Origin: Paludibacter sp.
GTDB taxonomy: Bacteria; Bacteroidota; Bacteroidia; Bacteroidales; Paludibacteraceae
Length of the DNA stretch: 64,000 bases
Assembly (NCBI GenBank): GCA_034928015.1
Contig: JAYFPF010000036.1
Span: 15,669-79,668, forward strand
Reading direction: 5' to 3'
The notes below the pieces were generated by a model. The model saw only the letters and a program-made list of their open reading frames with translations, searched no databases and was not told the DNA's origin. How positions within the stretch are numbered: the stretch's first letter is position 1; each line of letters opens with the position of its first letter. Positions 2,014-53,921 of the stretch are shown in pieces. Made by a program: the position numbers and the translations under genes.

Positions 2014-2048
2014 TAGAGCGAATAGCTAATAACGAATAACTAATAGTG
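2014..2048 (+). repeat. degenerate 7-nt tandem array right after the susD stop
   Basis: tagagcg-aatagct-aataacg-aataact-aatagtg; a similar array overlaps the acd stop on the minus strand (22890-22937). Confidence 0.55.
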
Positions 2049-2063
2049 GTACATTATCAACGT

Positions 2064-3470
2064 ATGAAAGTTTTAATATATATTTTGCTGATTTGTTATG
2101 GGGGTGTTGTCGCACCTGCATTTTCCAGAACCTATACTCCTATCCGGGTAGAAGCAAAAAAATGGGTGAAGGGAGATAATAACCAACCCTGGCAATTTTT
2201 TGACACCAGGATTATTAATAATCTGCAAGGGTTTAAAAATACGGGAAATGATGAAGTCAATAAATACGGCAGTACAATTAATAAGAAAATAGCCGGTACT
2301 GGTTTCTATCGTGTCGAAAAAACAGGTGGCCGCTGGTGGGTAATAGATCCTGAGGGATATTGCAATATTCAAACCGTGATAAATGGTTTCAGGCAAGGTA
2401 CATCTCAAAAAAATCAGAAAGCATTCAGACAATTGTATAAATCTGAAGAAGACTGGGCAAACAAATCTGCTAAAGCGTTCGAGGAATATGGACTTAATGG
2501 CATAGGTTCATGGAGTAATTATCCTGTCGTACAGTCTTATAACAACAAAAGTCAGAAACACAAGCTTTCATATTCGGTTAATCTGAGTATGATGGCATCT
2601 TACGGAAAGAAAAGGGGAGGTACATACCAGTTACCCGGTAATATCGGTTTCCCGAATCAAACCATCTTTGTTTTTGACTCTGAATTTCCGGCATTTTGTG
2701 ATTCTTTGGCTAAAGTACAGATTAGCGGCTGGAAAAATGATCCGGATGTTTTCGGATATTTTTCTGATAACGAATTGCCATTCGGGATTAAAAATCTGGA
2801 AGGATACCTGACGCTTAAAAATCCGAAGGATCCGGGAAGGATGGCTGCGGAAAAATGGTTGAAAGAAAAACGTCTGACAGTTGATAAGATCACCGACAAG
2901 GAAAGAAGTGAGTTTGCCGGTCTGGTTGCTGAAAGATACTTCCGCATTGTATCGGAAGCTATTCGCAAGGCAGACCCGAACCACATGTATCTCGGAAGCC
3001 GTTTACATGGCTCGGCTAAATTCGTTTCTGAAATAATGCATGCTGCCGGAAAATACTGCGATGTGGTGTCGGTAAATTATTATGGAGTATGGACTCCGGT
3101 TAAGGAACATCTCGACAATTGGGCTGCATGGTCGGGAAAGCCGTTTATTATCACCGAGTTTTATACAAAAGCGATGGATTCAGGTTTGGCAAATACAACA
3201 GGAGCCGGCTATACGGTACATACACAGCGAGACAGAGGATATGCATATCAGGATTTTTGTCTGGCTTTGCTGGAGTCTAAAAACTGTGTAGGCTGGCATT
3301 ATTTCAAATATCAGGATAATGACCCGACAGCCAAAGGGGTAGATCCGTCGAATATTGACTCGAACAAAGGAATCATAGACAATGATTACAGATTTTATGA
3401 AGATTTAATGAACTCAATGCAGCAACTTAACCGACAGGTTTATTCGCTCATAGACTATTTTGACAGGTAA
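2064..3470 (+). CDS. GH50-like (agarase-annotated) clan GH-A glycoside hydrolase with SPI signal, no T9SS CTD
   Basis: GRWWVIDPEG, GYFSDNELPF (putative acid/base Glu), FIITEFY (putative nucleophile Glu), CVGWHYFKYQD. ATG 2064 gives a clean signal peptide; the ORF track starts at GTG 2046. Confidence 0.72.
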   Translation: MKVLIYILLICYGGVVAPAFSRTYTPIRVEAKKWVKGDNNQPWQFFDTRIINNLQGFKNTGNDEVNKYGSTINKKIAGTGFYRVEKTGGRWWVIDPEGYCNIQTVINGFRQGTSQKNQKAFRQLYKSEEDWANKSAKAFEEYGLNGIGSWSNYPVVQSYNNKSQKHKLSYSVNLSMMASYGKKRGGTYQLPGNIGFPNQTIFVFDSEFPAFCDSLAKVQISGWKNDPDVFGYFSDNELPFGIKNLEGYLTLKNPKDPGRMAAEKWLKEKRLTVDKITDKERSEFAGLVAERYFRIVSEAIRKADPNHMYLGSRLHGSAKFVSEIMHAAGKYCDVVSVNYYGVWTPVKEHLDNWAAWSGKPFIITEFYTKAMDSGLANTTGAGYTVHTQRDRGYAYQDFCLALLESKNCVGWHYFKYQDNDPTAKGVDPSNIDSNKGIIDNDYRFYEDLMNSMQQLNRQVYSLIDYFDR

Positions 3471-3502: not shown

Positions 3503-4630
3503 ATGAAAAACAAGATTTTTACTTTAATTTTTATGATTGGATTAGCTGGTATTGCTAATCTGCAGGCACAGTTACTGCTGGAAGAAAATTTTGATTATGA
3601 TGCCAATCGTGTGTTGATTCTGGATGCAATTGCCAATTCTGATAATTTTGATGGTGTAACGGGATGGTCTACTCAGAGTAACAGCGCATCCGGGACTAAT
3701 TGTTTTAATATTGAGGATGGAGCTTTAACTTATAACGGTTATGCCGGTTCAGGAATTGGTAACTCACTAAAGTATAATGGTGATGCTGGACAAGGTGTTT
3801 TTAAACTTTTTTCAAAAAATGTACGGAACGATTCGGTTGTCTATGTTTCGTTTCTGATAAATTTTCCAAACACCGCAGTGTCAGGTGGCGATTATTTTGT
3901 CGGAATTAAAATGGAGCCTTCAGCGACCAGTACAAATTGGGGTGGCAGGTTGTTTGCCTCAGTCGATCCAACTTATCCGGGTGAAGAGGTGAGCCTCGGA
4001 ATCAACAAGATGAGCGGAGGAGCCACAACATGGGTCAATGCAGTGACTGGGCCGTTTCTTGCCGCAAACACAACTCACCTGCTTGTTGTAAAATATCATG
4101 TGGGCGTATTAAATGGTACCAGTGCAGCAGAGGAGGCCGGCAAGTTTGATGATGTTATGTCGCTTTATGTTAACCCAGCCCTGAACGGAAGTGAGCCTGT
4201 AACTCCCGATCTGATTCATCAGGATGCTAATCAGAATGATTTATATCGCTATACCCAGAGCGGACTGGTCTTTGGGGGAGCAAGAGGCTTGTACCTGCGT
4301 GCTTCAGCAGCAGGAAATGCTCCGGCATATACTATCGATGGCATTCGGGTCGGACTTACCTGGGAAGAAGTGTTACCGGCTCCAAACGGATTGAAGAATG
4401 CATCGGCAACAAACTTCTCGTATCGTATGGATGATAAACATATTGTTGTTACAGCATCAAATTTCAATTACGACAGGTTTGAACTGAATAGTTTGTCCGG
4501 TCAGTGCGTTTTATCCGGGTCGTTGGTTGAGAAAAATGGAAGAATCGATGCTTCTTCGCTACATCCGGGCGTATATATCCTGAGTTTACAGGGGAATCAG
4601 CGGGCGTCAGCCAAGATTATTATCCGTTGA
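3503..4630 (+). CDS. T9SS-sorted protein with one uncharacterised beta-rich domain
   Basis: Signal NLQA|Q; type-A CTD-like end GVYILSL...KIIIR; the domain resembles the N-terminus of 11312-14005. Confidence 0.8.
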   Translation: MKNKIFTLIFMIGLAGIANLQAQLLLEENFDYDANRVLILDAIANSDNFDGVTGWSTQSNSASGTNCFNIEDGALTYNGYAGSGIGNSLKYNGDAGQGVFKLFSKNVRNDSVVYVSFLINFPNTAVSGGDYFVGIKMEPSATSTNWGGRLFASVDPTYPGEEVSLGINKMSGGATTWVNAVTGPFLAANTTHLLVVKYHVGVLNGTSAAEEAGKFDDVMSLYVNPALNGSEPVTPDLIHQDANQNDLYRYTQSGLVFGGARGLYLRASAAGNAPAYTIDGIRVGLTWEEVLPAPNGLKNASATNFSYRMDDKHIVVTASNFNYDRFELNSLSGQCVLSGSLVEKNGRIDASSLHPGVYILSLQGNQRASAKIIIR

Positions 4631-4671
4631 TATTGATAGATTCAAATGTATTGATACAGAAAAAAAACGGT

Positions 4672-6783
4672 ATGAATAAGTTTCTTACATTCGTTTTATT
4701 TCTTTTTCTGATTGTTCAGGGAATCGGGGCAGAAGAAGTTGAACACCGGCTGATCCCGGTTGATGATACTTATACGTACAGTGATAATACCATCCGCGGG
4801 ATGGAGGATTTGCTGAAAACGTATCACTCAACTGCAGGAGCGCAATTTCGTCGGATTACTTTTCTTAAATTTGATATATCATCCTTGTCGCCATTTGCTC
4901 AGTCGGTTAAACTCCGGCTTTATACAAACGGGTTTCAGGCAGGTGGCGATAATGCACATCAGTTCGATTTGTATCCGGTAAAAATCAATACATGGTCGGA
5001 GGATGATATTACTTTTCTGAATTTTACAGAAAAGGCAGGAACCGATATGACTTCACCGGTTCTTGCTTCTTATATCGTACCTGCCGGTCAGGCTCTACCT
5101 GCCCAATATATTGAATTTTCCGGAGCAAATCTGACCAGATACATAACAGATTCACTGGCTGCAGGTAAACAATATGTTTCCATTCGCCTGCGGGAAAAGA
5201 ATGTTGTAAAGAATGGCGCTGCCGGTGTTATTGTCGAATTTCATTCGAAGGAGAACGAAAGCGGCTTTACACCAGAACTGATTGTTGTTGAAAAAGATGT
5301 AGAACTGCTGAGAGCTTCTGATATACGGGTAGATGGAGTACGGATTGAAGGATTTTCGGAATCTGTTTACCGCTATGTGTGCCGGCTGCCATATAATACA
5401 ACGGTTATTCCGGATGTGTCGGCTACAGCCAAGTATGGGGATACTTCAGTCTCTGTGACACAGGCAGCCGGTCTGACCGGAACAGAAGCCAGCCGAACAG
5501 CAAAAATCAGGATAAGCAAAGGTGAGGACATGCTTACTTATTCGATCGTGTTTGAACTTCTGCCGCCACCCAATGATGCCCGTTTGTCTGACATGTTGAT
5601 TAATGGGAAATCACTTGAGTTTTTTGATAAGGAGAAAACCGCTTATGTTGTTTATTTGCCTTATAGTGCCGAAGAAGTTCCGGAGATTACTGTCGTACCG
5701 AATGAGCCCGGAGCCGTAACCCGGATTGAAAATGCACTTTCTGTGGATAGTTCATCTCCGGAGTCTGAGCGCACGACAAACCTGTATGTAACTTCAGGAG
5801 ACAAAACGGAAACGCGTATTTACCGTGTTGAGTTCCGGCGTTTGCCCAAACTGGATATTATATTGGGAATAGGTCAGTCGAATATGGCCGGCCGGGCTGA
5901 TTTCTCAGCTTATACCGGAGCAATGCAGGATGTGTTTTTGCTAACTCCTGCCGGAGAATTTGAGAATGCATCGAATCCAATGAATAAGTACTCGAATATC
6001 CGGAAAGATATCAGTCTGCAAAAATTGGGACCATCTTATTCCTGCGCCCTGAAATTACAGGAATACATGCACAAACCTGTGGCTTTTGTTGTGAACGCGC
6101 AGGGGGGATCTTCGATTACAACCTGGTACCAACCCGGTAAATCAAATTATGATGCATCTGTTGTCCGGGCAAAAGAAGCACAACGTTTCGGCAGGATTCG
6201 TGGGGTAATCTGGCACCAGGGCGAAAGTGACAGTGGAAATGCAGGGACTTATATGGAGAAGTTAAAAACGATGGTCGAAAATTTGCGTAAAGATCTGAAT
6301 GAACCTGATTTATATTTTGTTGCCGGTGAGCTTGCTTACTGGCGTGGAGGAGGAACAGGTTCGACAGCCTTCAATACGATGATTCGTACCATAGCAGCTA
6401 ATATACCTAATAGCGACTGGATTTCGGCTGAAGGCTGTACACCGTTGATAGACAATTCAGATCCTCATTTTGATGCGCCAAGCGCCATTCTGTTGGGAGA
6501 ACGGTATGCTGAAAAATTAATCGGAGCAGTTTTTAATACAACAGCAACAGATCAGCCTGAGCAAATTAAGCTTCCGCTGTTGAAGCATCATGCCGGAGGT
6601 CTAACTGTTGTCACTCATCAAGACCCTGTTTGGTTAAAAATAACTGACTTAACCGGCAGGAGCGTTTATCAACACCTGCTACAGGCTCATCAATCCGTCG
6701 ATCTTAAAGTTAACAAAGGAATATATCTGCTCTCGTTCAGACAAAACGAGCAGCATTATACAAGAAAAATTATGATTCAATAA
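4672..6783 (+). CDS. T9SS cargo: DNRLRE/CBM96-like module + 2 cadherin-like beta-sandwiches + SGNH (SASA/CE6-like) acetylesterase + CTD
   Basis: PVDDTY...RRITFLKFDIS...EFHSKE...PELIV; esterase blocks GQSNMAG, WHQGESD, DPHF; CTD GIYLLS...KIMIQ. ATG 4672 chosen over TTG 4627. Confidence 0.82.
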   Translation: MNKFLTFVLFLFLIVQGIGAEEVEHRLIPVDDTYTYSDNTIRGMEDLLKTYHSTAGAQFRRITFLKFDISSLSPFAQSVKLRLYTNGFQAGGDNAHQFDLYPVKINTWSEDDITFLNFTEKAGTDMTSPVLASYIVPAGQALPAQYIEFSGANLTRYITDSLAAGKQYVSIRLREKNVVKNGAAGVIVEFHSKENESGFTPELIVVEKDVELLRASDIRVDGVRIEGFSESVYRYVCRLPYNTTVIPDVSATAKYGDTSVSVTQAAGLTGTEASRTAKIRISKGEDMLTYSIVFELLPPPNDARLSDMLINGKSLEFFDKEKTAYVVYLPYSAEEVPEITVVPNEPGAVTRIENALSVDSSSPESERTTNLYVTSGDKTETRIYRVEFRRLPKLDIILGIGQSNMAGRADFSAYTGAMQDVFLLTPAGEFENASNPMNKYSNIRKDISLQKLGPSYSCALKLQEYMHKPVAFVVNAQGGSSITTWYQPGKSNYDASVVRAKEAQRFGRIRGVIWHQGESDSGNAGTYMEKLKTMVENLRKDLNEPDLYFVAGELAYWRGGGTGSTAFNTMIRTIAANIPNSDWISAEGCTPLIDNSDPHFDAPSAILLGERYAEKLIGAVFNTTATDQPEQIKLPLLKHHAGGLTVVTHQDPVWLKITDLTGRSVYQHLLQAHQSVDLKVNKGIYLLSFRQNEQHYTRKIMIQ

Positions 6784-6811
6784 AATTATTCACATTAAAA
6801 AAGGAAATATT

Positions 6812-7675
6812 ATGAAAACAAATTACACAAAAAATGAAGAGAAAAGATATCTTACTTCATTGTCATTAATGATTACTTTTGCATTGTTCTTTATTGTAGG
6901 AATATCCACACAAAATATAAATGCTCAATCGGGTGCGGTTATTTATCCTACTGATGACGCTTATCAAAGATACACTAACGGAACTACTGTTTACGGACAA
7001 CAAGAAAGTTTACTTATTCAATTTCATACTGATGGTCAATGGAGAAGAGAAGCTTGGTTGAAATTTGAGATTGCCGGACTTGATGCTGAGCACTTTGACT
7101 CGGCAACTGTAATCTTGTCCCCTTTAAGTACGAATGCGAATATAATTTCTCCAATGCACACAATAAGAGAGACAACCACAAATTGGAGTGAGTTAACACT
7201 TGTTTCTGCAAAAAAGCCAACTCTTATCGATGTAGTATTAGATAGTAAAGAATATACACCAGGTACTCCGATTAAATTGGATGTAACAAACATACTTAAA
7301 ACACGTCTTGCAGAAGAGAAGGACACTATAAGTTTTAATATCAGACCTTCAAGTGTTGCAGGAGCATTGTATTTTCATTCAAAAGAATCAAGTCAATCGG
7401 AATTATGGCCGGTTTTACTTTTAAAAGGTACTACCGTAGGTCTAATCCATCAAGGTGATGAGGGAATTAGGTTTAAAGTAGCAAACAATAAACTAATAGT
7501 TTCAGGTCGAGAAAGTATTAAAACAACTATTTTTGATGTTACAGGTAAAGTTATATTGTCAAAACAAGAAGCACAGAATTCGTATTCAATTAATATTTCT
7601 GATTTGATTTCTGGTATCTACATAGTATCATTACAATATGAAACAGGTAATAAAATTGTAAAAATTATGCTATGA
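6812..7675 (+). CDS. T9SS cargo consisting only of a DNRLRE/CBM96-like module and CTD
   Basis: Signal NINA|Q; PTDDAY...RREAWLKFEI...WSELTL...LDVTN...FHSKE...PVLLL; CTD GIYIVSL...KIML; no catalytic domain seen. Confidence 0.78.
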   Translation: MKTNYTKNEEKRYLTSLSLMITFALFFIVGISTQNINAQSGAVIYPTDDAYQRYTNGTTVYGQQESLLIQFHTDGQWRREAWLKFEIAGLDAEHFDSATVILSPLSTNANIISPMHTIRETTTNWSELTLVSAKKPTLIDVVLDSKEYTPGTPIKLDVTNILKTRLAEEKDTISFNIRPSSVAGALYFHSKESSQSELWPVLLLKGTTVGLIHQGDEGIRFKVANNKLIVSGRESIKTTIFDVTGKVILSKQEAQNSYSINISDLISGIYIVSLQYETGNKIVKIML

Positions 7676-7676
7676 T

Positions 7677-7725
7677 TAAAAAACAGAAATATTTTTAACT
7701 TGTGTTGAAAGTATTTCTGTTTTTA
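7677..7725 (+). terminator. long AU-rich hairpin, terminator or RNA-stabilising stem
   Basis: AAAAACAGAAATATTTTTAAC-ttgt-GTTGAAAGTATTTCTGTTTTT, immediately after the 7675 stop. Confidence 0.6.
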
Positions 7726-7730
7726 ATTAA

Positions 7731-8759
7731 CGTGAGTTCGATATAAGAAAAATTGAAAAAGGTTAGCATAATTCCGAGATAATTATTATCTTTATAGTAT
7801 TGAAATACAAATAAATAACTAAATTCATCACTATGCTAACCACTGACGAAATTACTGAAATTTTTTATTTATGCGATGATTTTTCAAAAGAATTTGACAA
7901 ATCATACAAAAAACATATTTTGGTTGCCGAGAGCGGCAAAAAGACCAGAAACAAGCCAAACAGGCTGTCAAACAGTGAAATAATGACGATTTTGATCACT
8001 TTCCATCTGGGAGGATTCAGAAATCTGAAACATTACTATGTGTTTTATGTAAAGCAACATCTCAATGGGGAGTTTCCACGTTTGGTTTCCTATAATCGAT
8101 TTGTTGAGTTACAACAGCAAGCTGTTTTTCCTCTGGTTATTTTTCTTAAATTGTGTAGGATGGGTCAATGTACCGGAATCAGTTTTGTTGACTCAACCAC
8201 CATTAAAGCGTGTCATATCAAGAGAGAGAAAATGAATAAGGTTTTCTCTGGAATTGCCACAAAGGGCAAGGGAACTCTTGGTTGGTTTTTTGGTTTTAAA
8301 CTACACCTGATTATTAATGACAAAGGAGAAATTCTTAGCTTTGTTATTACTCAGGGAAATGTTGATGACCGGGAACCACTTCAATATGAATCGTTTATTG
8401 AAAAAGTGTCTGGAAAATTATATGCCGATAGGCGTTATATTTCACAGGCACTACGAGATATATTGTTTGTTGATGGAATTCATTTTGTTACCAAAATGAG
8501 AAATAATATGAAAGGTGGCGAAATACCTTTGCAGGACAGAATTTATCTGCGTAAAAGAGCCATCATTGAGACAGTCAATGATGAACTCAAAAATATTTGC
8601 CAGATAGAACACACAAGGCATCGGTCTTTTACCAATTTCATTTCAAATCTTGTGGCTGCACTGCTCGCTTACAGTTTTATGCCTAAGAAACCATCAATTA
8701 AGGTTGAATTTGTGGATCAAGATCAACTCGTTTTATTTTAATTTTATATCGAACTCACG
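7731..8759 (+). mobile_element. IS982-family insertion sequence
   Basis: Perfect terminal IRs CGTGAGTTCGATATAA (7731-7746) and TTATATCGAACTCACG (8744-8759), flanked by TTAATTAA at 7723-7730 and 8760-8767. The boundary is ambiguous by 1 bp (6-bp TAATTA alternative). Confidence 0.92.
7833..8741 (+). CDS. IS982-family DDE transposase
   Basis: SFVDSTTIKAC, WFFGFKLHLIINDKGE, NVDDR, LYADRRYIS, KRAIIETVNDELKN, EHTRHRS. Confidence 0.92.
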   Translation: MLTTDEITEIFYLCDDFSKEFDKSYKKHILVAESGKKTRNKPNRLSNSEIMTILITFHLGGFRNLKHYYVFYVKQHLNGEFPRLVSYNRFVELQQQAVFPLVIFLKLCRMGQCTGISFVDSTTIKACHIKREKMNKVFSGIATKGKGTLGWFFGFKLHLIINDKGEILSFVITQGNVDDREPLQYESFIEKVSGKLYADRRYISQALRDILFVDGIHFVTKMRNNMKGGEIPLQDRIYLRKRAIIETVNDELKNICQIEHTRHRSFTNFISNLVAALLAYSFMPKKPSIKVEFVDQDQLVLF

Positions 8760-8807
8760 TTAATTAACAAATAAAAATAACAAATAAAAACTATCGATTA
8801 ATACATC

Positions 8808-11243
8808 ATGAAAAAAACAAATAAAGTTACATTTTTCTCTTTAATTTGTCTATTGTTTGTTGCCTCCCTGTCAGCCCAAAAAACACCCAAGCCGGTCGTC
8901 TTCTATCTCCAGAACCTCCCTCAGGAGCGAATAGGAACAGAAACCGACGCGGTTATCATTGATAGTCTGCAAAAACAGAACTTTTGGGTGATCCCTGTAG
9001 ATTGCAGTAGTTTTCCAAAAACCTCACCAGAACTGGAAGACTATCTGGTCACATTCCATAAAGCCAGTCCGGCATTGTTGGCAACCTATGCTACTGCAAC
9101 AGAGGAGGCTGATTTGGATAATATCTATTATGTTCCGGAGGGTCATATACTACAACATAAAATTCCAATCTGGAACATTCTCGATCATGGAGTCGACGGA
9201 CTGATAAACCGCATCATGGATACATGGAATAAAGAAATTGTGGAAACATTCGGAGTGCAACCTGTTACCAGTCCCGAACAAATGTATGATAAACATGGAA
9301 ACCCGATTGATTACAACATGTATATGGATTTGGTTTATCCGAGTGGATCGCCGCTGAAAGATGTGCCGTTAGTCATTAATTTTTCCTCGAATTCACCCCG
9401 GCAAAAACCATTTAACCCTACAGGAACCAATGAAGTAGTATACCGCAATATATACCCGTTTGGTTTTCTGACAACCGGTTATGCATGGGCCAATGTGGAT
9501 CATTGTTATAATCCGTTGGCCAGAGCAGATGTTTGGACATATTTCGACAGGTATACACTTGAAGATTGGGCGGGTCACGCATTGGTTACTGCTTATGTGC
9601 GTTATATCAATACCCATCTGAATGACTATAATCTGAACGGAAAAATAGGAACTATGGGTATTTCGAAAGCATCGTACAGTTCTGTCCGTATTGCCAATAC
9701 TAAGAATGCTGATGGCAGAGAACATTTCTTGTACGGAGGGGTAGAAAATACAAAACCACAGCCCTGGCCGGGTGTGCCAAGCACGGTTGATGTAGCTTAT
9801 GCTGCTGCCGGTAATGGTACACGTCGTGTAAATACCTATGTAGATAAGTTTACGGTGCCTATGATTACTTCTGCGGGATCAAAAGATCAGTATAATCAAT
9901 GGGATGTATATCCTGAAGTTGTGAAAAGATTTAATGAACTTGATAATAAACACCTGGCATTCTGGATGGAAGACCTTGGACATACTTATCCTGGCCTTGG
10001 AACAGATCTGGCAACCGGTGAAAATCGTTATAAATTATTCAAAACATACTTTGATAATTATCTCAAAGCATCTGTAACGGATCCGCTGAAAGTGTTTTAT
10101 ATTTATCCGAAAGAGAACGCAACTGAAGTTGATACGGATGGTTTAACGCGTATCCTTATTCATGACGGTGTTTTACCTGCTGCCATGCTTGGCTTGACTC
10201 CGTATGCTCCGATTACGGTAAGATTCCTGTCAGAAATTGATTCAGTAGCTTTTGTCCAGCATGTGAAAATATATCATAAAGCATCGAATGTTGAGGTCGC
10301 AGGTACGTGGAAACCCAAAACGGGTAATACAACTTATGAATTTACGCCGGCATCGGATATGATAAAAAATGAGGTATACAGAATTGTTGTTTCCGCAGAA
10401 CTGCAAAATATATCCGGACAAAAAATGGAGAATGAGGTTGTACGTGATTTTACAATAACCAAAGAAGGACAGGAAGATGTTGAAACCGAAAGTTTAGTGA
10501 TTGCTCCCACGGATGATACTTACCAGAAGACATCTCTGGGGACGACTGCCTATGGCGCTCAGAATACCATGCGTGTACGCTACAGTCCCTATGGCGATTG
10601 GCGTTTCGATGGTTATATCAAATTTAATATTGCCGGGCTTGATGCAAGTAAAATTAAGTCGGCAAAGTTGAAACTGTCTTCCTCAACAACGCTTACGGGA
10701 GAGCCGGTTTCTCTGACTGTCTTTAAAACAACCACCGAATGGACGGAGTCGACCTTATTGTCGGCAAACAAACCAACGATTGTGGGGAGTGGATTGGATG
10801 TGGTAAATTTTACAGGTACTGAATTATGGACCAGTTTTGATGTGACTAATCAGTTGAAATCCGATATTGTTGATTCACAGACTGAGATTAGTTTTCTGAT
10901 ACGCGCGGCAACAGGAGGAAGTACTGAAAATGTTTACTTTAACACCAAGGAAGCTGAAAATGAAGTACTCAGGCCGGTGCTGGTTGTGGAGGAAATTGTA
11001 CCTGCAACAGCTGTTCCGCAGCAAGTCCCGGATGAGTTATATGTCACAGTCATGAATGAGAAGTTATATGTAACCAACGCCGGAGAGGCTGTTGTGACTA
11101 TTTTCTCATTATCAGGTAAAGCATTACTTTCTGAAACACTGTCAGGCAAATTATATGTCGATCTTTCAAATATTCCGGATGGAGTGTATATTGTGTCGGT
11201 AGCTAATGCCGGGCAGCGAAAGATGTTGAAAATTGTCCGCTGA
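8808..11243 (+). CDS. T9SS cargo: putative alpha/beta-hydrolase (esterase) + Ig-like (Big_5-type) + DNRLRE/CBM96-like + CTD
   Basis: Signal SLSA|Q; nucleophile-elbow-like GTMGISKAS, then AGSKDQY and DLGHTYP; Ig-like YPKENATEV...FTPASDM...YRIVV; PTDDTY...YIKFNI...FNTKE...PVLVV; CTD GVYIVSV...KIVR. Confidence 0.68.
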   Translation: MKKTNKVTFFSLICLLFVASLSAQKTPKPVVFYLQNLPQERIGTETDAVIIDSLQKQNFWVIPVDCSSFPKTSPELEDYLVTFHKASPALLATYATATEEADLDNIYYVPEGHILQHKIPIWNILDHGVDGLINRIMDTWNKEIVETFGVQPVTSPEQMYDKHGNPIDYNMYMDLVYPSGSPLKDVPLVINFSSNSPRQKPFNPTGTNEVVYRNIYPFGFLTTGYAWANVDHCYNPLARADVWTYFDRYTLEDWAGHALVTAYVRYINTHLNDYNLNGKIGTMGISKASYSSVRIANTKNADGREHFLYGGVENTKPQPWPGVPSTVDVAYAAAGNGTRRVNTYVDKFTVPMITSAGSKDQYNQWDVYPEVVKRFNELDNKHLAFWMEDLGHTYPGLGTDLATGENRYKLFKTYFDNYLKASVTDPLKVFYIYPKENATEVDTDGLTRILIHDGVLPAAMLGLTPYAPITVRFLSEIDSVAFVQHVKIYHKASNVEVAGTWKPKTGNTTYEFTPASDMIKNEVYRIVVSAELQNISGQKMENEVVRDFTITKEGQEDVETESLVIAPTDDTYQKTSLGTTAYGAQNTMRVRYSPYGDWRFDGYIKFNIAGLDASKIKSAKLKLSSSTTLTGEPVSLTVFKTTTEWTESTLLSANKPTIVGSGLDVVNFTGTELWTSFDVTNQLKSDIVDSQTEISFLIRAATGGSTENVYFNTKEAENEVLRPVLVVEEIVPATAVPQQVPDELYVTVMNEKLYVTNAGEAVVTIFSLSGKALLSETLSGKLYVDLSNIPDGVYIVSVANAGQRKMLKIVR

Positions 11244-11311
11244 AACACAGGAGAGGATTCAGGTCTATTGTAGTGAATTCCGGTTCTGCCGGGTAATTTT
11301 TAAATTGTTGT

Positions 11312-14005
11312 ATGAAGGCATTTTTTTATTTCAAAATAAAATTATTATTGGTTGTTTGCTTGATCGGGATATCCAATAATTTTTATGCTCAATCCACAGC
11401 TTTGTTGTTGGATGATAATTTCGACTATGCTGAAGACTCCGATTTAGTGGGACAGAATGGTTGGGTTTTGGGAACAGCCGGCACAAACAAAGTTACCATA
11501 TCAACAATGGGCTTAAGTTATCCGGGATATCCGGACTCGGATACAGGTCTGGCTGCCGCTTTTAATCCGTTGAGCGACCGTGTTCAGAAGAGTTTTACAG
11601 GAACCCTCAATAACAGCTATTTTTACGCTTTTCTGATTCGTGTAAATTCAGTTGGTACAGGTGATTTTTTCGCTGGCTTTTTTAGCGGAAATGCTTTCAG
11701 AGGAAGGGTTTATTTAAAAGCTGACGGAAATGGATTTCAGTTTGGGTTGGTTAAAACTACAACCGGAACGGTTACTTACACTACGGGTGCTCCTTTTTCG
11801 TTCGGAACAACCTATTTAGTGGTAGTGAAATATGATTTTATCGCAGGCAGTGGAAATGATGAGGTAAGTTTATTTATCAATCCTGATTTAAATGCAAATA
11901 ATCCGGGAAGTCCGGTCATTGGTCCTTTAACAGATACCGGAAATGATGTCTCTGCGAATGTTTTTGCAATTCAGGGAAGGACTAATGCAGGAAGTTTCAG
12001 CTTGGACGGTTTGCGGATTGCTACAACTTGGAATGCAATCAAAGGAACCGATTTCGAAAATCATTACCTGGAATTACCCCGGTTTATTAGTTCGGATATG
12101 GTAATTCAGCGTGACACTCCATTAAAACTGAGAGGTTGGGCTGTTGCCGGAGACACGGTGTTGGTTGAGTTTATAAGACAAAATAGGGTAGTTAAAGATT
12201 CGGTTGAGGTTAATGCAGATGGCCGGTGGGAAGTTCAACTTCCCGCTCAGGCCGTTTCTGTTGAGCCGTGTCGCCTGAAATTCAGCCTTAAAGGTTATCC
12301 GGAAACGTTTCAGCAACTTGAAAATATCCTGATTGGCGATGTGTGGTTAGCAGGAGGTCAGTCGAATATGGAGAAGAAAGTCAACCATCTGCTGGAAGCT
12401 GAAGATTATATCAGGGAAGCTGATGATTTTCCGAATATACGTGCTTTCAGAGCCAGCTATAATGCATTGGCAGAACCTTCGGAAAAGGTGAATGCGGGTT
12501 CTGCACCCTGGATTGTTTGTAATAGCCTGAAAGTAGCCGACAATGTATCGGCGGTAGCATACGTATTTGCCCGGGAGATTTATGAAAAAACAGGTATTCC
12601 TGTCGGCATTATGCAGGCATACCGGGGAGGAACCGAACTGGAAACATGGTTAAGTCCCTGGAAACTTGCCGAACCTGAGTATTGTAAAATTGCAGGAAGA
12701 AATGATTTTCTGGATGCGGGAAACAGTGCAAACGCACATTCAGTTAATTTTAACGGACAGGTTAATCCTCTGAAAGGTTTTCCCCTGAAAGGCTTTATCT
12801 GGTACCAGGGAGAAAGCAATACAAAGCGACCGAATGAATATCGCTATATGATGAAAATGCTCATAGAGGATTGGCGGACTTTATGGAATCAGGGAGATCT
12901 ACCGTTTTATTACGTTCAGATGTTTAATGTATCGGCGCCTGCTGTTTACGAAGAGGCGACATGGGCTGATTTGCGGGAACAACAAAACTTTTTGTTGTAT
13001 GATAAAACAGTGCCGAATACCGGTATGGCTGTAATTATCGACACGAACGAAGAAGCGCTTAATCCGGATGATGATATCCGCATGCATCCCAGGAATAAAA
13101 AAGTGGTTGGAATCAGGTTGGCAAATATTGCATTGAAGGATACCTACGGCTTTGAATTGCTGGCAGAAGGACCAGTGCTGAACAGGTACAGGATATCGAA
13201 TGACTCGGTTTACTTGTATTTTAAAAATACAGGTGAAGGATTGAAAATAAAAACCGGAGATGCTGAATTACAGGGATTTGTTGTAAGCGGTACAGATAAA
13301 AAATTTAAACCGACAGAAGCTACTATATTGAATGATAGTACAGTCGCATTAAGAAGTACACAGGTTTCTCAACCTGTTGCCGTAAGGTATGGGTGGGCAC
13401 GTAATCCGGTTTGCAATTTGTATAATGCTGTGGATATTCCTGCTACTCCTTTCAGAACTGACGGATGGAAACTGAGTTCATATACAGAGCCGCAATCCTC
13501 CTGCCCGGCGCAAACAGGCAATTCGAAACTGGTGGCTGTAATAATTAATGGTATGCCTTTGCAGGATTTTAATCCAGAACAGTTCACTTATAACATAGCC
13601 TCCGGCATAACTGCGGATAAAGCAGATGTTTTAGCAATAGCCGACAGTCCGTTTGCAGAGGTGTCGGTTTCCGGTCCGGAACAAGAGAATACAATTCTGA
13701 TTACTGTTACTTCCGAAGATGCCTCCCGGAGTGTGTATGAACTGACTTTCGACAGAAATACAGGTTTTTATGAAAATACAAAAGGAAAATGGACAATAAT
13801 GATGAGTGAAGAAGGGATGATTGTAAAAAATAACTCAGGAGAAGCATTATCTTTGAAAATGTTTAATCCGGCCGGACAATGTTTGTCGGTTGACCGTTTA
13901 GAAGGAAATGGAGAAAAAAAATATAATCTGCCGAAAGGTGTTGTTTTTCTTGATATAACTGATTCTTCAGGTAGGCCTCAAACGATAAAATATTTAATTA
14001 AATAA
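11312..14005 (+). CDS. T9SS cargo: uncharacterised N-terminal domain + sialate-O-acetylesterase-like SGNH esterase + cadherin-like + CTD
   Basis: SDMVIQRD, GDVWLAGGQSNME, FIWYQGESN, MHPRNKK, AVRYGW...NLYN...PATPFRTD; CTD-like end. Confidence 0.85.
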   Translation: MKAFFYFKIKLLLVVCLIGISNNFYAQSTALLLDDNFDYAEDSDLVGQNGWVLGTAGTNKVTISTMGLSYPGYPDSDTGLAAAFNPLSDRVQKSFTGTLNNSYFYAFLIRVNSVGTGDFFAGFFSGNAFRGRVYLKADGNGFQFGLVKTTTGTVTYTTGAPFSFGTTYLVVVKYDFIAGSGNDEVSLFINPDLNANNPGSPVIGPLTDTGNDVSANVFAIQGRTNAGSFSLDGLRIATTWNAIKGTDFENHYLELPRFISSDMVIQRDTPLKLRGWAVAGDTVLVEFIRQNRVVKDSVEVNADGRWEVQLPAQAVSVEPCRLKFSLKGYPETFQQLENILIGDVWLAGGQSNMEKKVNHLLEAEDYIREADDFPNIRAFRASYNALAEPSEKVNAGSAPWIVCNSLKVADNVSAVAYVFAREIYEKTGIPVGIMQAYRGGTELETWLSPWKLAEPEYCKIAGRNDFLDAGNSANAHSVNFNGQVNPLKGFPLKGFIWYQGESNTKRPNEYRYMMKMLIEDWRTLWNQGDLPFYYVQMFNVSAPAVYEEATWADLREQQNFLLYDKTVPNTGMAVIIDTNEEALNPDDDIRMHPRNKKVVGIRLANIALKDTYGFELLAEGPVLNRYRISNDSVYLYFKNTGEGLKIKTGDAELQGFVVSGTDKKFKPTEATILNDSTVALRSTQVSQPVAVRYGWARNPVCNLYNAVDIPATPFRTDGWKLSSYTEPQSSCPAQTGNSKLVAVIINGMPLQDFNPEQFTYNIASGITADKADVLAIADSPFAEVSVSGPEQENTILITVTSEDASRSVYELTFDRNTGFYENTKGKWTIMMSEEGMIVKNNSGEALSLKMFNPAGQCLSVDRLEGNGEKKYNLPKGVVFLDITDSSGRPQTIKYLIK

Positions 14006-14007
14006 AA

Positions 14008-16155
14008 ATGAATTGTACAAAAAAGAATTTAGTTGTAGTAGTATTTGGCTTTTTGTTCCCGGTTTTGTTGTCGGCACAAAATGATTATCAAACCATTCAG
14101 ACGAAGAGTTCCTATTCCGGTAGCTGGACTACCCGTCAGGCTAAATTAGTCGGCCTGGTTCCCGGTTTCGAAAGCAAGGCGGATGGAGCGGATGATTTTA
14201 CCCGGTATGGTACTTACAAATATCTGAGAACAGACTCGACGGGATTTTTCTATGTAAAGAAAATTGACGGCAGATGGTGGATGGTTGATCCTGAAGGTTA
14301 TGCCGGTATCAACATGGCTGTGACGAGTTTTAGCTCAGCGAATATACAAAACGATTATGATATTACCAGACGTTTGGGATATAATGGCTCCGGAAATTTC
14401 TTAGCCAGCGAGAGTCAGACTAAGTCAGGTTACAACCTTCAGAATTATGCGAACTTTTCTTTTACACGGCGACTTAATTTTTTCCTCAGTTATAAAAATG
14501 TAAGAAAGAATTACTATACGACACCAACGTCTGTACAGGGCAGCCTGGATCATATTCTTGTACTTGATCCGCAGTTTGAGATATACTGCGATAATCTGGC
14601 CAATACCAATGTAACTCCCTTTGCAGAAGAAAGAGATTTGCTTGGATGGTTTACCGACAATGAAATTAACTTCAACCAGGACCAGTTGCGCAATCTGGTT
14701 AAAGATTTACCGGCTGGAGATCCAAGCAGGAATGCAACCTTAGCATGGGCAGCTCAAAAGGGCCTCAGCGAATCGGATTGTATCAATTATACATCGAAAG
14801 TGACCGAAGCGTTGAAACAGGAGTTTGCCGCTTATCTCGCAGAACATTATTTTAAAGTTGTTGCGGCCGCTATCCGGAAATATGACCCAAACCATCTGAT
14901 TCTCGGAAGTCGCTTTCATGGTCGTCCGAGGGCTATTCCGGCAGTAGTGGCAGCATCTCATAGATATATGGACGTTACTTCCGTTAACTTTTACGACCGG
15001 TGGTCGCCAAATGAACAGATCGCGGCAACTTCCTGGACTGAGGATAAACCCTGTTTAGTGGGAGAATTCTATATTAAAGATATAAATACACAGCCGGGTA
15101 CGCAGTCGGGCGCCGGTTGGTATGTCAACTCTCAGGTACACAGAGGGTATTTTTATCAGAATACTTGTATTGAGTTGCTGAAAAATAAGAATTATATAGG
15201 TTGGCACTATTTCCGTTTCAAGGATGATGATGACGGTTCGAATAAAGGCATTGTGAGCAACGCGCTGGTTGAATATACAGATATGACCGGCTACATGGAA
15301 GAACTGAACAAACAGGTGTACAGGCTTATTGATCATTTTGACGGGATAAATCGCAGACCTGATGTGGAGACCAGAGCTTATACTGTTGAAGCGGTGGCCG
15401 ATACTTATGTAATTCCCGGTACTACGAATACGGCTAACTTTGCATCTTCAACAGAATTGGAAATCCGCCATCACGCAACAGAAGCAAATCGCCGTGAAGC
15501 GTTTCTGAAATTTGATTTATCATTATTGAGATCAAAACTCCCGAAGTTGAAAAATGCCCTTTTGGAGGTTAGCTGTATCCAGACAGATGAGTCGGCAAGG
15601 GCGCTATTCGCATCCGGAATCAGTGATGTGTCATGGGAAGAGTCGACATTGACGGGGGCAGTGCGTCAGACCAATAACGACTGGCGCCTCGGTTACAACA
15701 GGTTGTCGTTTCTGAAAGGAATAGTTCCTCAGGAGAAACTTGTATTCGACGTAACAGGATGGATTTATGATCAGCCATATCAGGAAAATGTATCATTTAA
15801 AATTCATGATCTGAATGCTACGGGTTCAGCCCTGAAAATTGCTTCCCGGGAGCATGCTGACGTTAATTTACATCCGAAACTGATACTGACATTTTGGGAT
15901 GATTCAACCGATATTCCGACTTTTAATGAAAAAAATAATGCATTCAGTTTTTTTCCTAATCCGGTGCGTGATGAACTTTATATCAGAGGAGATGATTTTG
16001 CAAAAGCTGAATTGTTAACAATAAAGGGAGAAAAACTGTTGAGTACACATGAAAGCAGGATCAATGTCTCGGGATTTCAGAACGGGATTTATTTGTTGAG
16101 TGTATTATGCAATAACGGAAAAACGTCTTTCTATAAACTGAGTATTGTTAATTAA
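14008..16155 (+). CDS. T9SS cargo: GH50-like hydrolase + DNRLRE/CBM96-like + CTD
   Basis: GRWWMVDPEG, GWFTDNEINF, CLVGEFY, GWHYFRFKDD; VADTYV...RREAFLKFDLS...IASRE...PKLIL; CTD FPNPVRDELYI...GIYLL. Confidence 0.8.
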   Translation: MNCTKKNLVVVVFGFLFPVLLSAQNDYQTIQTKSSYSGSWTTRQAKLVGLVPGFESKADGADDFTRYGTYKYLRTDSTGFFYVKKIDGRWWMVDPEGYAGINMAVTSFSSANIQNDYDITRRLGYNGSGNFLASESQTKSGYNLQNYANFSFTRRLNFFLSYKNVRKNYYTTPTSVQGSLDHILVLDPQFEIYCDNLANTNVTPFAEERDLLGWFTDNEINFNQDQLRNLVKDLPAGDPSRNATLAWAAQKGLSESDCINYTSKVTEALKQEFAAYLAEHYFKVVAAAIRKYDPNHLILGSRFHGRPRAIPAVVAASHRYMDVTSVNFYDRWSPNEQIAATSWTEDKPCLVGEFYIKDINTQPGTQSGAGWYVNSQVHRGYFYQNTCIELLKNKNYIGWHYFRFKDDDDGSNKGIVSNALVEYTDMTGYMEELNKQVYRLIDHFDGINRRPDVETRAYTVEAVADTYVIPGTTNTANFASSTELEIRHHATEANRREAFLKFDLSLLRSKLPKLKNALLEVSCIQTDESARALFASGISDVSWEESTLTGAVRQTNNDWRLGYNRLSFLKGIVPQEKLVFDVTGWIYDQPYQENVSFKIHDLNATGSALKIASREHADVNLHPKLILTFWDDSTDIPTFNEKNNAFSFFPNPVRDELYIRGDDFAKAELLTIKGEKLLSTHESRINVSGFQNGIYLLSVLCNNGKTSFYKLSIVN

Positions 16156-17374: not shown

Positions 17375-19729
17375 TTATTTTCGCAACGCTTTATCAGCCT
17401 TTAACTGTTCTCCTTTCCATGCCTTCTTATTTGTCCAGTCGGCAGGTTTTGCAGTCCAGAACTCATCGTCAGCCGATAAACCCAAAGGAAGAAAAACGGC
17501 TGAACACAAATACAGACTTCCCGTGGAGATATAGGACTCGGCCAGTTCCGGCTGATGTCCGGCAAAACCCAGTGTCAGCCATCCATGTTTGTCAAAAGTG
17601 CCTTTCTGACTGATTTGCTGTTTGATAACGGAAGTCAGAGCTGAACGTATCTGTACGGGACTCAGGTGATCAGGCAGTTTTTTCAGTAAAGTTGCCTGTG
17701 AAAGTGCATGAAAACAACCGAACCTGTAAACGAGCGATCTACCTATGGCCGGATAGGTCCCTTCCGGAGAAATCAGTCTCTCGAGCTGATCAGCATGCCT
17801 GCTCAGGCGTGTTGACTGAAGGTTAAATCTGGATTTGTAATCAGGAGAAATGTCTTTGATAACCGCAAGTACATCATACAACATCGGATGTATGACCAGG
17901 CTGTTATAATAATCAAAATGAAATGCCGGTCCGTCGCCGTACCAGGCATCTCCTTTGTACCAGTTTTCTAACTTTTCCAAAGCATAATCAATGGCTTCGA
18001 AATTACATTTGCCGGTGAAACGGAAAAGAAACGCCTCTACAGTTGCTGAAAATAGTACCCAGTTGTTTTCCAGTGGTTTGAAAGTTCTGGTCGCTATCAT
18101 GGAGTTAATCATCAATTCCTGCGTTTTTTTGTCTAAACCACCCCAAAGATTTTCAGGTGCACGCAGAAAACCCTGAGCGAGGAAAGCCGCGTCAACAAGA
18201 TTCTGCCTGTCGTTATTGAATCTGATAAAGTCGGGAGAAGTTGAGTCAACCGCATTTTTTAATGCAGCAAGTGTCATTGACAGGTATCTGGTGCGTAGCT
18301 TACTTTCTTTGCTGTCATCACTATCCAGCTCCAGCCAGGGAGCAATACCACATATCGTTCTGCCCAGCGCTTCGAGATGGGAAACCTGTTCACGCCCCCG
18401 TTTACTTCCCGCTTTGGTTGTTTCCACGGGCATTTGTTGCCTTAGTGTGCTGTTACTTAAATTAGCAAGAACAGGTTCGGTGATTTTTATCATATTTTCA
18501 ACCCAATACCGGCGGTCGGGATGTGTTTTGCTTGCTCTCGCAGTCTCAATTTTTCTGATTCTGAGCATAGCTTCAATGAAATAATAATCTGCATAGGTCA
18601 GGGGAGCGTCAACCTCACTGTTTTTAGCCATAAAACCCACACTGTGTTTGAGAATGAAATGCCCGTTTTCATCTTTCTTAGCCATATATGCCGGCGATGC
18701 CAGCGAACGAACCATTTGTTTCCCCAGGGAATAGTATTTTTTCGCCAGCTTTTTGTCGGTGAAAGTGCTTAGTTCAACAAGGGCAGAAGCCATGATTGCT
18801 CCGGCAGAAGCATCTCTGAGCGCATTGGGTATGTCTGGAGCGTTGAAATCCCAATAAGGAATCTTATCCTTGGGAAGGTTCTTGTGCCCTGCAATGTAAT
18901 CTGCTATTTTGATGGCCTGGTCAAGATAAATTTTCTTCTTGGTTTCGCGATACATCATAACGTAACCGTATAAACCCCAGGCTTGCCCTCTTGCCCAGGC
19001 TGATTCATTGTTAACTCCCTGATGCGTTACCCGTTCGACAAACCCTCCGTTAATCGTGTCGTAGCTTATTAAATGATACGAACTTCCATCCTTCCGGAAA
19101 TGGTATTTCAGGGTAGTGTCGGCATGAGAAACCGCAATTTTATAAAAACTGCTGTCTCCCGATATTTTCGTAGCTTGCGTAAGTAATTCCAGATTCATCA
19201 TGTTGTCGATGATAACAGGATATTGCCATTGTTTACTATCCCACGATCTGATTACACCTGTGTTTTCTTTGTATCGCGTAGAAAGAGAGCGTGCAGCAGT
19301 AATGATTACATGTTCTGAATTTTTGTTACCCGTCAGCCTCAGGGCATTGCCAAAACTACAAAATATCATAAATCCAACGTCATGATCATTGGTGGTATAT
19401 TGTTGTTTCCTGACCCTCTCTGTCATTTCAAGTGCAGCTTTCCTGAATTCCTCATCACCTGTAAATTCGTATAAATACCATAAACTGCCGGCAAAAAAAC
19501 CGCTTGTCCACCATTTGTCAGGTGAAGTTATAAGCTTTCCATTCCGGTCGATTGTCCGAGGTAGTCTGCCCGGAATTCCGGCCATTTTTTTGTATAATCC
19601 CATCATTTGATGAGCGGAAACAGATAAGGTTTCTTCGGTTAGTTGCATGATTTCCTTTTTCTCCGTGATTGCAAAAACGAAACTGGAGAATCCCAGAAAA
19701 AGAAATAGCAGGATAGATTTAATTCTCAT
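17375..19729 (-). CDS. GH88 unsaturated glucuronyl hydrolase fused to DUF2264/GH154 glucuronidase-like domain
   Basis: N-half: WWTSGFFAGSLW, HDVGFM, VIIDNMMNLELL, SAWARGQAWGLYG. C-half: SHLEALGRTICGIAPWLEL, NNWVLFSA, WYKGDAWYGDG, FDYYNS, YISTGSLYLC. Confidence 0.88.
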   Translation of the reverse strand: MRIKSILLFLFLGFSSFVFAITEKKEIMQLTEETLSVSAHQMMGLYKKMAGIPGRLPRTIDRNGKLITSPDKWWTSGFFAGSLWYLYEFTGDEEFRKAALEMTERVRKQQYTTNDHDVGFMIFCSFGNALRLTGNKNSEHVIITAARSLSTRYKENTGVIRSWDSKQWQYPVIIDNMMNLELLTQATKISGDSSFYKIAVSHADTTLKYHFRKDGSSYHLISYDTINGGFVERVTHQGVNNESAWARGQAWGLYGYVMMYRETKKKIYLDQAIKIADYIAGHKNLPKDKIPYWDFNAPDIPNALRDASAGAIMASALVELSTFTDKKLAKKYYSLGKQMVRSLASPAYMAKKDENGHFILKHSVGFMAKNSEVDAPLTYADYYFIEAMLRIRKIETARASKTHPDRRYWVENMIKITEPVLANLSNSTLRQQMPVETTKAGSKRGREQVSHLEALGRTICGIAPWLELDSDDSKESKLRTRYLSMTLAALKNAVDSTSPDFIRFNNDRQNLVDAAFLAQGFLRAPENLWGGLDKKTQELMINSMIATRTFKPLENNWVLFSATVEAFLFRFTGKCNFEAIDYALEKLENWYKGDAWYGDGPAFHFDYYNSLVIHPMLYDVLAVIKDISPDYKSRFNLQSTRLSRHADQLERLISPEGTYPAIGRSLVYRFGCFHALSQATLLKKLPDHLSPVQIRSALTSVIKQQISQKGTFDKHGWLTLGFAGHQPELAESYISTGSLYLCSAVFLPLGLSADDEFWTAKPADWTNKKAWKGEQLKADKALRK

Positions 19730-47946: not shown

Positions 47947-48903
47947 AAAAATAATAAAAACATTTCTAATTTTCATCCAAACATTTCCTTGGCTACCGCC
48001 TAAAGGGATATACAGATAATCTCTAAACCATGTAGAAAGAGATATATGCCATCGTCTCCAGAATTCAGCAATATCTCTTGAGAAATAAGGAAAGTTAAAG
48101 TTCCTCATCAAATTAAATCCAAATAATCTAGCTGTCCCGATCGCAATATCTGAATAGCCCGAGAAATCTCCATATATCTGAAATGTAAAAAACAAAGCTC
48201 CTAATATTAACGTGCTTGAAGAATATGTGGAGGAATTATTAAATATTTGATTTGCATATTCAGCACAATTATCTGCAATTACAATCTTTTTAAATAGTCC
48301 CCACAATATTTGTCTTAAACCATTTACAGCTGATAAATAATTAAATTCCCTTTTATTTGCGAACTGCGGTAGAAGTAAGGTTGCTCTTTCAATTGGTCCG
48401 GCTACTAATTGCGGAAAGAAACTAACAAATGCAGCAAAAGAGATGAAATCTCTTGTGGGAGTCATTCTTTTTTTATAAACATCAATTGTATAACTTAAAG
48501 TCTGAAAGGTGTAAAAACTTATCCCAACAGGTAGAATTATATTCAACGAACTAGCCTTTATGTTTAATCCAAAAAATGTGAATGCTGTGATAAAATTTTC
48601 GAGAAAGAAATTATAATATTTAAATAGTCCTAGCAACCCCAAATTAACAATAACACTTGTATATAGGAGTAAAGTTCTTTTTCTTTTATTACTTTCTTTC
48701 CCTAAAAAAAAACCTATAGTGTAATCTATTATAGTACTAAAAAAAATAAGAGACAAAAACCTCCAGTCCCACCAACCATAAAACACATAGCTTGCAATTA
48801 CAATCAGATGATTTTGTAGTTTTATGTTGTTTTTAAATAAAAACCAATAAAGAAAAAACACAATGGGCAGAAATATCCCAAACTCTAAGGAATTAAATAA
48901 CAT
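47947..48903 (-). pseudogene. MBOAT polysaccharide O-acyltransferase (AlgI/DltB family), 3'-truncated by IS4
   Basis: LPVGISFYTFQ, FFPQLVAGPI, FSGYSDIA, EFWRRWHISLS...YIPLGGS. After NVFIIF the frame runs into the IS end (HCCPVK), so the usual catalytic WHG segment is absent. Confidence 0.9.
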
Positions 48904-48930
48904 AGTATTATTTACGTTTCAAGAATGACA

Positions 48931-50019: not shown

Positions 50020-50051
50020 AATCTACTAATTTAACTAATCACACATCTGCT

Positions 50052-51308: not shown

Positions 51309-51314
51309 TTGATT

Positions 51315-52559: not shown

Positions 52560-52701
52560 TTAATATGTAAAATATCTTCACTATGTGTCACTTTCAAATC
52601 TGCTTTTATCTAAATAAACAAAATCCAAATTGTTTTTTTGTGACCATTCAAGTAATTTCAGGGCAAATCATTGATTCTCTTGAACATGGTCATTGACTCT
52701 C

Positions 52702-53901: not shown

Positions 53902-53921
53902 GAACTTTTAAATAGAAGTCA

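Follow-up and report, generated by a model that had tools for sequence, protein, structure and literature searches.

We analyzed a stretch of 64,000 nucleotides of a Paludibacter sp. contig (hereafter the window), which carries a polysaccharide utilization locus (PUL), and focused on two proteins encoded there, P0001 and P0002. Comparison of their sequences indicates that P0001 and the N-terminus of P0002 have in common a homologous domain of about 220-270 aa, which we named "X". We consider it moderately probable that X is a non-catalytic binding module placed at the distal end of surface proteins, and that in this locus its putative ligand is a glycan, as for carbohydrate-binding modules (CBM). 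P0001 itself is most likely a protein akin to surface glycan-binding proteins (SGBP) that is displayed via the type IX secretion system (T9SS). The first-pass annotation of this DNA had hesitated between a new CBM and a jelly-roll catalytic domain. We favor the accessory role, because X is joined to many unrelated partners, occurs in tandem copies, is optional on orthologues of the hydrolase GH50b, and because the position of P0001 resembles that of SGBPs; the argument for catalysis drawn from a missing lyase fails. X would then represent a putative new CBM.

The X domain in P0001 and P0002

Residues 1-290 of P0001 and 7-243 of P0002 align with 28% identity (81/293; 62.4 bits and E=1e-14 in a single BLASTP comparison), which bears out the homology that the first-pass annotation had claimed for the two regions. 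X is longer in P0001, where insertions bring it to about 270 aa, than in P0002 (about 220 aa). In a scan of the whole genome with a family hidden Markov model (HMM) of which both sequences are part, the E-values were 1.7e-80 for P0001 and 5.8e-79 for P0002. The pattern originally read from the two proteins (LLL[ED][ED]NFDY..GW..L.Y.GY..S..G..Y..FLI..GR..G..K..L.VVKY..D..SL..NP..P..[IL]DG.R..TW) corresponds to the signature that we computed from 158 non-redundant X instances. In these instances, conservation reaches 97% for Y78, Y148, and W214, 96% for F11 and T141, 95% for D157, 93% for W25, 91% for Y13, L42, K147, P165, and D206, and 89% for R209. On P0002 itself, conserved family positions fall at W51, Y70, Y73, R132, K173, Y174, D183, D232, R235, and W240. 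The domain is acidic overall (median pI of 4.66), and the few basic positions among the best conserved ones (R106, K147, R209) are suggestive, being compatible with an anionic ligand without amounting to evidence for one.

P0001 (3503-4630, plus strand, 375 aa) consists of a signal peptide, X, and a T9SS tail only. The signal peptide (3503..3571, residues 1-23, MKNKIFTLIFMIGLAGIANLQAQ), whose cleavage site was inferred from the translation, has no cysteine; it thus lacks a lipobox and the protein is not a lipoprotein. X follows at 3572..4378 (residues ~24-292) and a T9SS type A C-terminal sorting domain (CTD) at 4418..4627 (residues ~306-375). This tail scores 29.5 bits against TIGR04183 (residues 315-375), above the cut-off of 23, and matches PF18962 with E=8.6e-5. 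Furthermore, a profile made from a broad alignment matches the CTD structures 8glk and 8glj of the PDB. With an N-terminal Sec signal and a TIGR04183 match above cut-off, P0001 is predicted to be a T9SS cargo.

P0002 (11312-14005, plus strand, 897 aa) is a larger multidomain protein. Its signal peptide (11312..11389, residues 1-26, cleavage site also inferred from the translation) precedes X (11390..12046, residues 27-245), and these are followed by an immunoglobulin (Ig)-like linker domain with a carbohydrate O-acetylesterase of the SGNH/SASA type (12077..13468, residues ~256-719). The protein ends with a cadherin-like β-sandwich (residues 749-815) and a CTD-like tail (residues ~820-897), together at 13556..14002. 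The esterase matches PF03629 (SASA, E=4.5e-17) and the PDB entries 9ega (3.8e-74), 9h4u ("carbohydrate esterase FI8", 1e-72), and 7kmm (7e-68), and the cadherin-like domain has a weak match to PF12733 (E=0.017). The tail of P0002 is itself below the T9SS threshold; PF18962 is present in the orthologues P0257 and P0267.

The initial reading had recognized no family in this domain, and our sequence and profile searches of Pfam, NCBIfam, and the PDB agree, with no match above threshold on X. In Pfam, P0001 matches by its T9SS tail only and has nothing on X, and P0002 matches SASA along with weak sub-threshold hits. One of the latter is Laminin_G_3 (PF13385), which we rejected: the match has 16.4 bits (E=0.01) against a gathering threshold of 27.6 bits and covers residues 100-211 only. 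Neither P0001 nor any of ten canonical X members matches Laminin_G_3 even at E<=1, and the ten members have no Pfam match of any kind on X at this threshold. NCBIfam has no model on X, be it of the "choice-of-anchor" type or another curated domain, again at E<=1, and searches of the PDB with single sequences and with two different X profiles found no match to it. Two candidates from the same genome were also discarded. When X was compared by hhalign with the four local CBM96 domains (PF24517), the probability of a relation was 0.4%, and PF24517 has no match on P0001 or P0002; with the lyase-like PF14099 protein, the probability was 0.5%.

We then turned to the predicted fold. The AlphaFold2 (AF2) model of full-length P0001 is all-β with a pLDDT of 89.6, mostly above 90 over residues 21-290, and with a signal-peptide helix (residues 2-17) of low pLDDT. 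The model of the domain of P0002 alone (residues 27-250) is also all-β, with a pLDDT of 93.8 and a pTM of 0.91. Searched against the PDB with Foldseek, X matches only structures of the concanavalin A (ConA)-like lectin/glucanase fold, at 8-20% identity, with TM-scores of about 0.45-0.59; the probability is 1.0 for calreticulin, legume lectin, domain 4 of AbnA, PL36, GH131, and TtX122. For the X domain of P0002, the TMq to ConA-like domains is at most 0.59. The models thus place X in the ConA-like superfamily, as a two-sheet antiparallel β-sandwich or jelly roll, and settle its predicted fold class, in line with the jelly-roll fold suggested earlier. TM-scores of 0.5-0.6 indicate that the modeled relationship of X to its neighbors is at the level of the superfamily, not of the family.

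Most of these structural neighbors are non-catalytic binders. They include the lectin domains of calreticulin, the sugar-binding domain 4 of AbnA, the CBM2 of a phage Dit protein, a legume lectin, an accessory domain of BT_1020, and, in clostridial neurotoxins and NTNH, the Hc-N subdomain, which is lectin-like. The AbnA domain (Geobacillus, PDB 5hon) and that of calreticulin (3o0v/3pos) are, like X, two-sheet β-sandwiches of about 220 residues, with Foldseek TM-scores of 0.48-0.56. More generally, accessory ConA-like domains of the LamG or Laminin_G_3 type are non-catalytic modules appended to carbohydrate-active enzymes, as we propose for X, and the family motifs of X lie on the N- and C-terminal strands of the sandwich. 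They differ from X in that there is no relation at the sequence level: the PF13385 match is below threshold and restricted to P0002, and the profile searches of the PDB were empty. CBM96 (PF24517) is another accessory β-sandwich of T9SS-exported enzymes of this PUL and has the same partners as X (SASA esterase and GH50b), but it has about 165 aa against 220-270 aa, lies internally or at the C-terminus instead of the N-terminus, and shows no profile relation to X.

Partners and genomic context of X

A word-indexed search for relatives of P0001 gave 95 proteins, all unannotated over their N-terminal part, and those with a name are proteins of Paludibacter and Prevotella metagenome-assembled genomes (MAGs). 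An exhaustive phmmer search with X alone gave 550 clusters (representatives at 50% identity) at E<=1e-3 and 160 at E<=1e-10, with proteins of 80 to 2,627 aa. The X domain of P0002 matches many of the family representatives with E-values from 1e-30 to 1e-44, which makes it a canonical member, and that of P0001 falls in a divergent sub-family marked by three insertions. When 301 Bacteroidota genomes were searched with the X profile, the domain was present in 62 of them and in 49 of the 144 genera. Hence, X is found in about a fifth of the sampled genomes of the phylum and makes up more than 500 clusters, yet it goes unnamed in Pfam, NCBIfam, and the PDB. As a consequence, thousands of T9SS surface proteins are annotated by their sorting tail alone.

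The architectures of these proteins are diverse, with one constant. X was located in 281 of the 283 proteins that we collected (once in 253, twice in 18, and three times in 3), and in 256 of the 281 (about 91%) its first copy begins no more than 60 residues from the N-terminus, after the signal peptide. Among 40 long representatives, 19 carry a T9SS CTD, and the other partners include DUF5018, CHB_HEX_C_1, Fn3_assoc, FG-GAP, LTD, Big_5, Sulfatase, SASA, CBM96, and HL_N-beta. Other sorting tails found on X proteins are IPTL-CTERM and DUF6383, the latter with a weak match in P0189. Some relatives of P0001 (P0063-P0085, P0088/P0093) have no PF18962 tail and end in the short motif NGQL.I.R.G..Y.V.G..L, which might serve Prevotella-like Bacteroidales as another short sorting signal.

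Several partners of X act on glycans. The domain is found on a SASA esterase (P0002), on a BD-FAE esterase (positions 12441-15329 of locus L018), on a GH50-like enzyme (P0250), and on a sulfatase (P0099). It is thus a discrete module within carbohydrate-active enzymes, and one predicted to fold independently, given the pTM of 0.91 obtained for the domain-only model. The case of P0250, from a Prevotella MAG, is particularly informative. This protein has a P0002-type X (69% identical to that of P0002) fused before an orthologue of the GH50b-CBM96-CTD protein of the window, to which it is 68% identical over 677 aa starting at its residue 250. It bears both X and CBM96, and its gene adjoins that of P0249, an orthologue of P0002. 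Since X is present on P0250 and absent from the GH50b of the window, it is shuffled among enzymes of one type of locus, and the enzyme can do without it. As for the X domain of P0001, its closest relative (58% identity) lies C-terminal to a sulfatase, and the gene of this protein adjoins one encoding a CBM96-SASA esterase.

The genome under study has exactly five X genes according to the scan with the family HMM: P0001, P0002, and three on another contig (C64). These three are part of a second SusC/SusD PUL (L018, C64:19000-38999, plus C64:16942-18772), where X is fused to fn3 and a BD-FAE esterase, forms the head of an fn3 protein, and makes up a stand-alone protein of 346 aa. The second PUL also encodes three PL6 (Chondroitinase_B) proteins, a PL5 alginate lyase, the PF14099-like protein with a T9SS tail, and a GH88 that is about 50% identical to the GH88 part found in the window. 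All five X genes of the genome are therefore in two SusC/SusD PULs encoding uronate-processing enzymes.

The context of P0001 is also conserved across genomes. We found orthologues (44-81% identity) in 17 loci of Paludibacter and other Bacteroidales MAGs. In all 17, the orthologue comes after SusC-SusD, directly in six (L007, L010, L011, L013, L014, L015) and after GH50a in 11; SusD is visible in 15 of the loci, the contigs of the other two ending before it. The window has the order SusC-SusD-GH50a-P0001, so P0001 is located next to susC/susD as SGBPs are. A canonical SGBP is a lipoprotein and most often has several domains of the Ig-like or CBM-like kind. P0001 resembles SusE/SusF and SGBP-B in being a β-sandwich protein that does not look like an enzyme, encoded just downstream of susC/susD and with conserved synteny. 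SGBP-Bs are mutually non-homologous and are recognizable mainly by position and fold (PMC12016534, which also supports part of the above description of SGBPs).

These elements suggest how X might work. Once its C-terminal sorting domain is used for anchoring, the N-terminal X of such a protein would be the part farthest from the cell, which would suit a ligand-binding tip. Type A cargo of the T9SS loses its CTD after Sec export and transit through the system, and is attached to the outer surface or released from it. The X domain of P0001 would then capture the polymer at the cell surface, beside SusC/SusD, and that of P0002 would target the SGNH/SASA O-acetylesterase to it. In this PUL, the ligand would most likely be the acidic, acetylated glycan that the locus degrades. 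If binding is true, X would be a new CBM family and P0001 an SGBP of a PUL that is displayed through the T9SS instead of a lipid anchor. This would aid the annotation of PULs in Bacteroidales of the environment, Paludibacter among them, in digesters, sludge, and sediments.

Surface display and catalysis as alternatives

Some of our observations weigh against glycan binding by X or against the likeness of P0001 to SGBPs. P0001 differs from canonical SGBPs, which are outer-membrane lipoproteins, by its Sec signal devoid of a lipobox cysteine, its single domain, and its T9SS type A tail. Enzymes are also found among the Foldseek matches of X, at similar TM-scores: PL36 Aly36B, PL14 vAL-1, GH131, and a GH16-like protein. 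Among the best structural matches of X (TMq of 0.55-0.58) are also TtX122A/B (PDB 8q28, 8q29, 8q2a), from Teredinibacter turnerae, which are comparable in being β-jelly-roll accessory modules of large secreted multidomain proteins that belong to no CBM, GH, or PL family (they are "X122" in CAZy). They gave no clear binding or activity in published screens, in which none of the tested glycans was bound (PMC10916295). The analogy has its limits, as TtX122 shares 10-11% identity and no profile match with X and comes from redox proteins of a gammaproteobacterium. Finally, we sampled the neighborhoods of X across the phylum, taking two flanking genes on each side of 19 X loci from different genomes (72 proteins). 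There is no SusC/SusD and no catalytic family of carbohydrate-active enzymes among the 25 most frequent flanking families. The recurring neighbors are T9SS cargo with Por_Secre_tail (8), DUF5689 (4), CBM9_1 (2), Exo_endo_phos (2), and assorted housekeeping genes.

This last result rules out that the X family as a whole is associated with PULs. In consequence, the general ligand of the family need not be a polysaccharide. Taken as a whole, X serves T9SS surface proteins as an N-terminal module of general use, and its link with glycan degradation belongs to the sub-families present in this genome and its relatives. One might thus suppose that X is a distal surface module with a ligand other than a polysaccharide, serving in adhesion to cells, proteins, extracellular DNA, or the cell's own envelope, or that it has a structural or spacer role for T9SS cargo. 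Its presence in PUL proteins would then reflect general surface display and not the targeting of a substrate. The phylum-wide neighborhoods and the results on TtX122 fit this explanation, as do the many adhesin-type partners (FG-GAP, LTD, Ig-like, DUF5018) and the strict N-terminal position, which also suits the tip of an adhesin. We nevertheless regard it as rather unlikely for the proteins studied here. Here and in related genomes, the enzymes that carry X act on glycans (esterases of two families, a sulfatase, a GH50-like enzyme), X is swapped among the enzymes of one type of locus, and the orthologues of P0001 are strictly syntenic with SusC/SusD, which is the pattern of substrate-targeting modules.

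Across the family, LTD, CHB_HEX_C_1, and Fn3_assoc recur within X proteins, and DUF5689, Exo_endo_phos, and CBM9_1 beside X genes (L020-L038). These recurring partners and neighbors hint that part of the family works in a different surface system, possibly related to nucleases or phosphatases.

The other alternative is catalysis. According to it, X, or at least the insertion-bearing sub-family of P0001, is a new jelly-roll lyase or glycoside hydrolase, the endo-acting surface enzyme of the PUL. On the models, fold alone does not choose between binding and catalysis: the size and fold of X fit small jelly-roll enzymes, and PL36 Aly36B (PDB 6kcw/6kzk) and PL14 vAL-1 (3a0n), with TMq of 0.49-0.57, act on uronate polymers. 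These two lyases, however, share 10-16% identity with X, have no sequence or profile match to it, and no catalytic motif in common with it was identified. The same holds more broadly, since in the PDB searches X had no sequence or profile match that would make it a member of the jelly-roll lyases (PL7, PL14, PL18, PL36, and similar), nor is it related in this way to any other solved lyase or hydrolase, or to the PF14099 protein. Conservation can be read in both directions. Orthologues of P0001 keep S46-D47-N48, K136, R149, E162, K197, E211, D246, R249, and R266, among others, invariant, and across the family K147-Y148, R106, and R209 are conserved. But P0002 departs from the family at several of its best-conserved polar or aromatic positions (Y78 to F, D64 to R, E171 to N, R194 to I), and P0001 has a glycine in place of D64.

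P0001 is a stand-alone domain beside SusC/SusD, where surface endo-enzymes are often encoded too, and the window has no recognizable enzyme that would cleave a uronate polymer in endo fashion. Against this, the two GH50-like enzymes could provide endo or exo cleavage. Tandem copies and optional presence, as on GH50b, are unlike the behavior of the PL36 and PL14 lyases, and together with the partners that are not carbohydrate-active enzymes and the mostly non-PUL contexts they are atypical of a catalytic domain. In the second PUL, the recognized lyases (three PL6 and one PL5) have genes of their own, next to those of the X proteins. A catalytic X therefore seems improbable to us. We give an equally small chance to the more specific scenario in which the sub-family of P0001 founds a new family of jelly-roll enzymes that open the polymer at the cell surface, with the canonical X carried by esterases as its non-catalytic relatives.

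The main reason to suspect a lyase had been that the locus encodes a GH88, which acts on unsaturated uronates, and no lyase that would produce them. This reasoning did not survive a closer look at the GH88 gene (17375..19729, minus strand, 784 aa). Its product is a fusion of GH88 (residues 52-395) and of a GH154/DUF2264 β-D-glucuronate dehydratase (residues 404-779). The first half is an unsaturated glucuronyl hydrolase (PDB 3wiw, 1e-107), and the second matches the solved β-D-glucuronic acid dehydratases 9o4u (7.8e-111) and 9nwf (5.5e-110), as well as Pfam DUF2264 (1.5e-114). GH154 dehydrates β-GlcA at the non-reducing end and yields the delta-4,5-unsaturated uronate that is the substrate of GH88, so that the lyase is bypassed (PMC12269599). 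The dehydratase domain would thus supply the unsaturated uronates and explain the presence of GH88 while making a lyase unnecessary. In the published system of B. caccae, GH88 and GH154 are separate, co-localized proteins. Having both on a single polypeptide is natural support for their coupling, and orthologous fusions are found in L009, L011, and L012. This locus shows that a GH88 without a lyase should no longer count as evidence for a hidden lyase. For X, we thus retain the reading as a binding module.

Other features of the locus

The window opens with the end of SusC (3-368), followed by SusD (403-2013; PF07980 and PF14322) and by the GH50-like hydrolase GH50a (2046-3470; PDB 5t3b, E=9e-88), which is directly upstream of P0001. 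Downstream of P0001 are a protein with CBM96, a cadherin-like domain, a SASA esterase, and a CTD (4627-6783) and another with CBM96 and a CTD (6812-7675), both identified with Pfam. All these genes are on the plus strand. An insertion sequence (IS) element with a DDE transposase (7833-8741; PF13612, 3.9e-68) then sits between two genes of the PUL. A search of the 17 related loci with tblastn gave no counterpart, so the element probably inserted recently in this genome.

The next gene (8808-11243) encodes a protein of 811 aa with an unannotated head of 420 aa (8808-10067), Big_5, CBM96, and a CTD. The head has no match in Pfam (E<=1) or among PDB sequences, and is 52-78% identical to its counterparts in the syntenic loci L001, L006, L009, and L012. 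We regard it as a candidate uncharacterized catalytic domain of this PUL. P0002 comes next, followed by GH50b with CBM96 and a CTD (14008..16155, plus strand; PDB 5t3b, E=3e-47). GH50a and GH50b are paralogues with about 33% identity, are both closest to 5t3b, and are both kept with the PUL in related MAGs; GH50a is bare. No other genes for red-algal galactan were seen among the annotated genes of the window. After GH50b come a CE15 glucuronoyl esterase, the GH88/DUF2264 protein on the minus strand, and a GH2 with a malectin domain. We found no paper in the literature on a PUL of the type GH50 + CE15 + GH88; published work on BpGH50 deals with agarose and porphyran.

Given the CE15, the GH88-dehydratase fusion, the two SGNH/SASA esterases, the GH2, and the CBM96 modules, the substrate of the locus is probably an acetylated polymer containing glucuronate. 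CBM96 is found on four neighboring proteins of the locus, and the founding member of this family is specific to alginate (PMC9971899).

Further along the window, at about 48000-54000, the G+C content falls sharply to about 30%, against about 41% elsewhere, and the GC skew is reversed. This segment contains five or six open reading frames of 330-420 aa on the minus strand.

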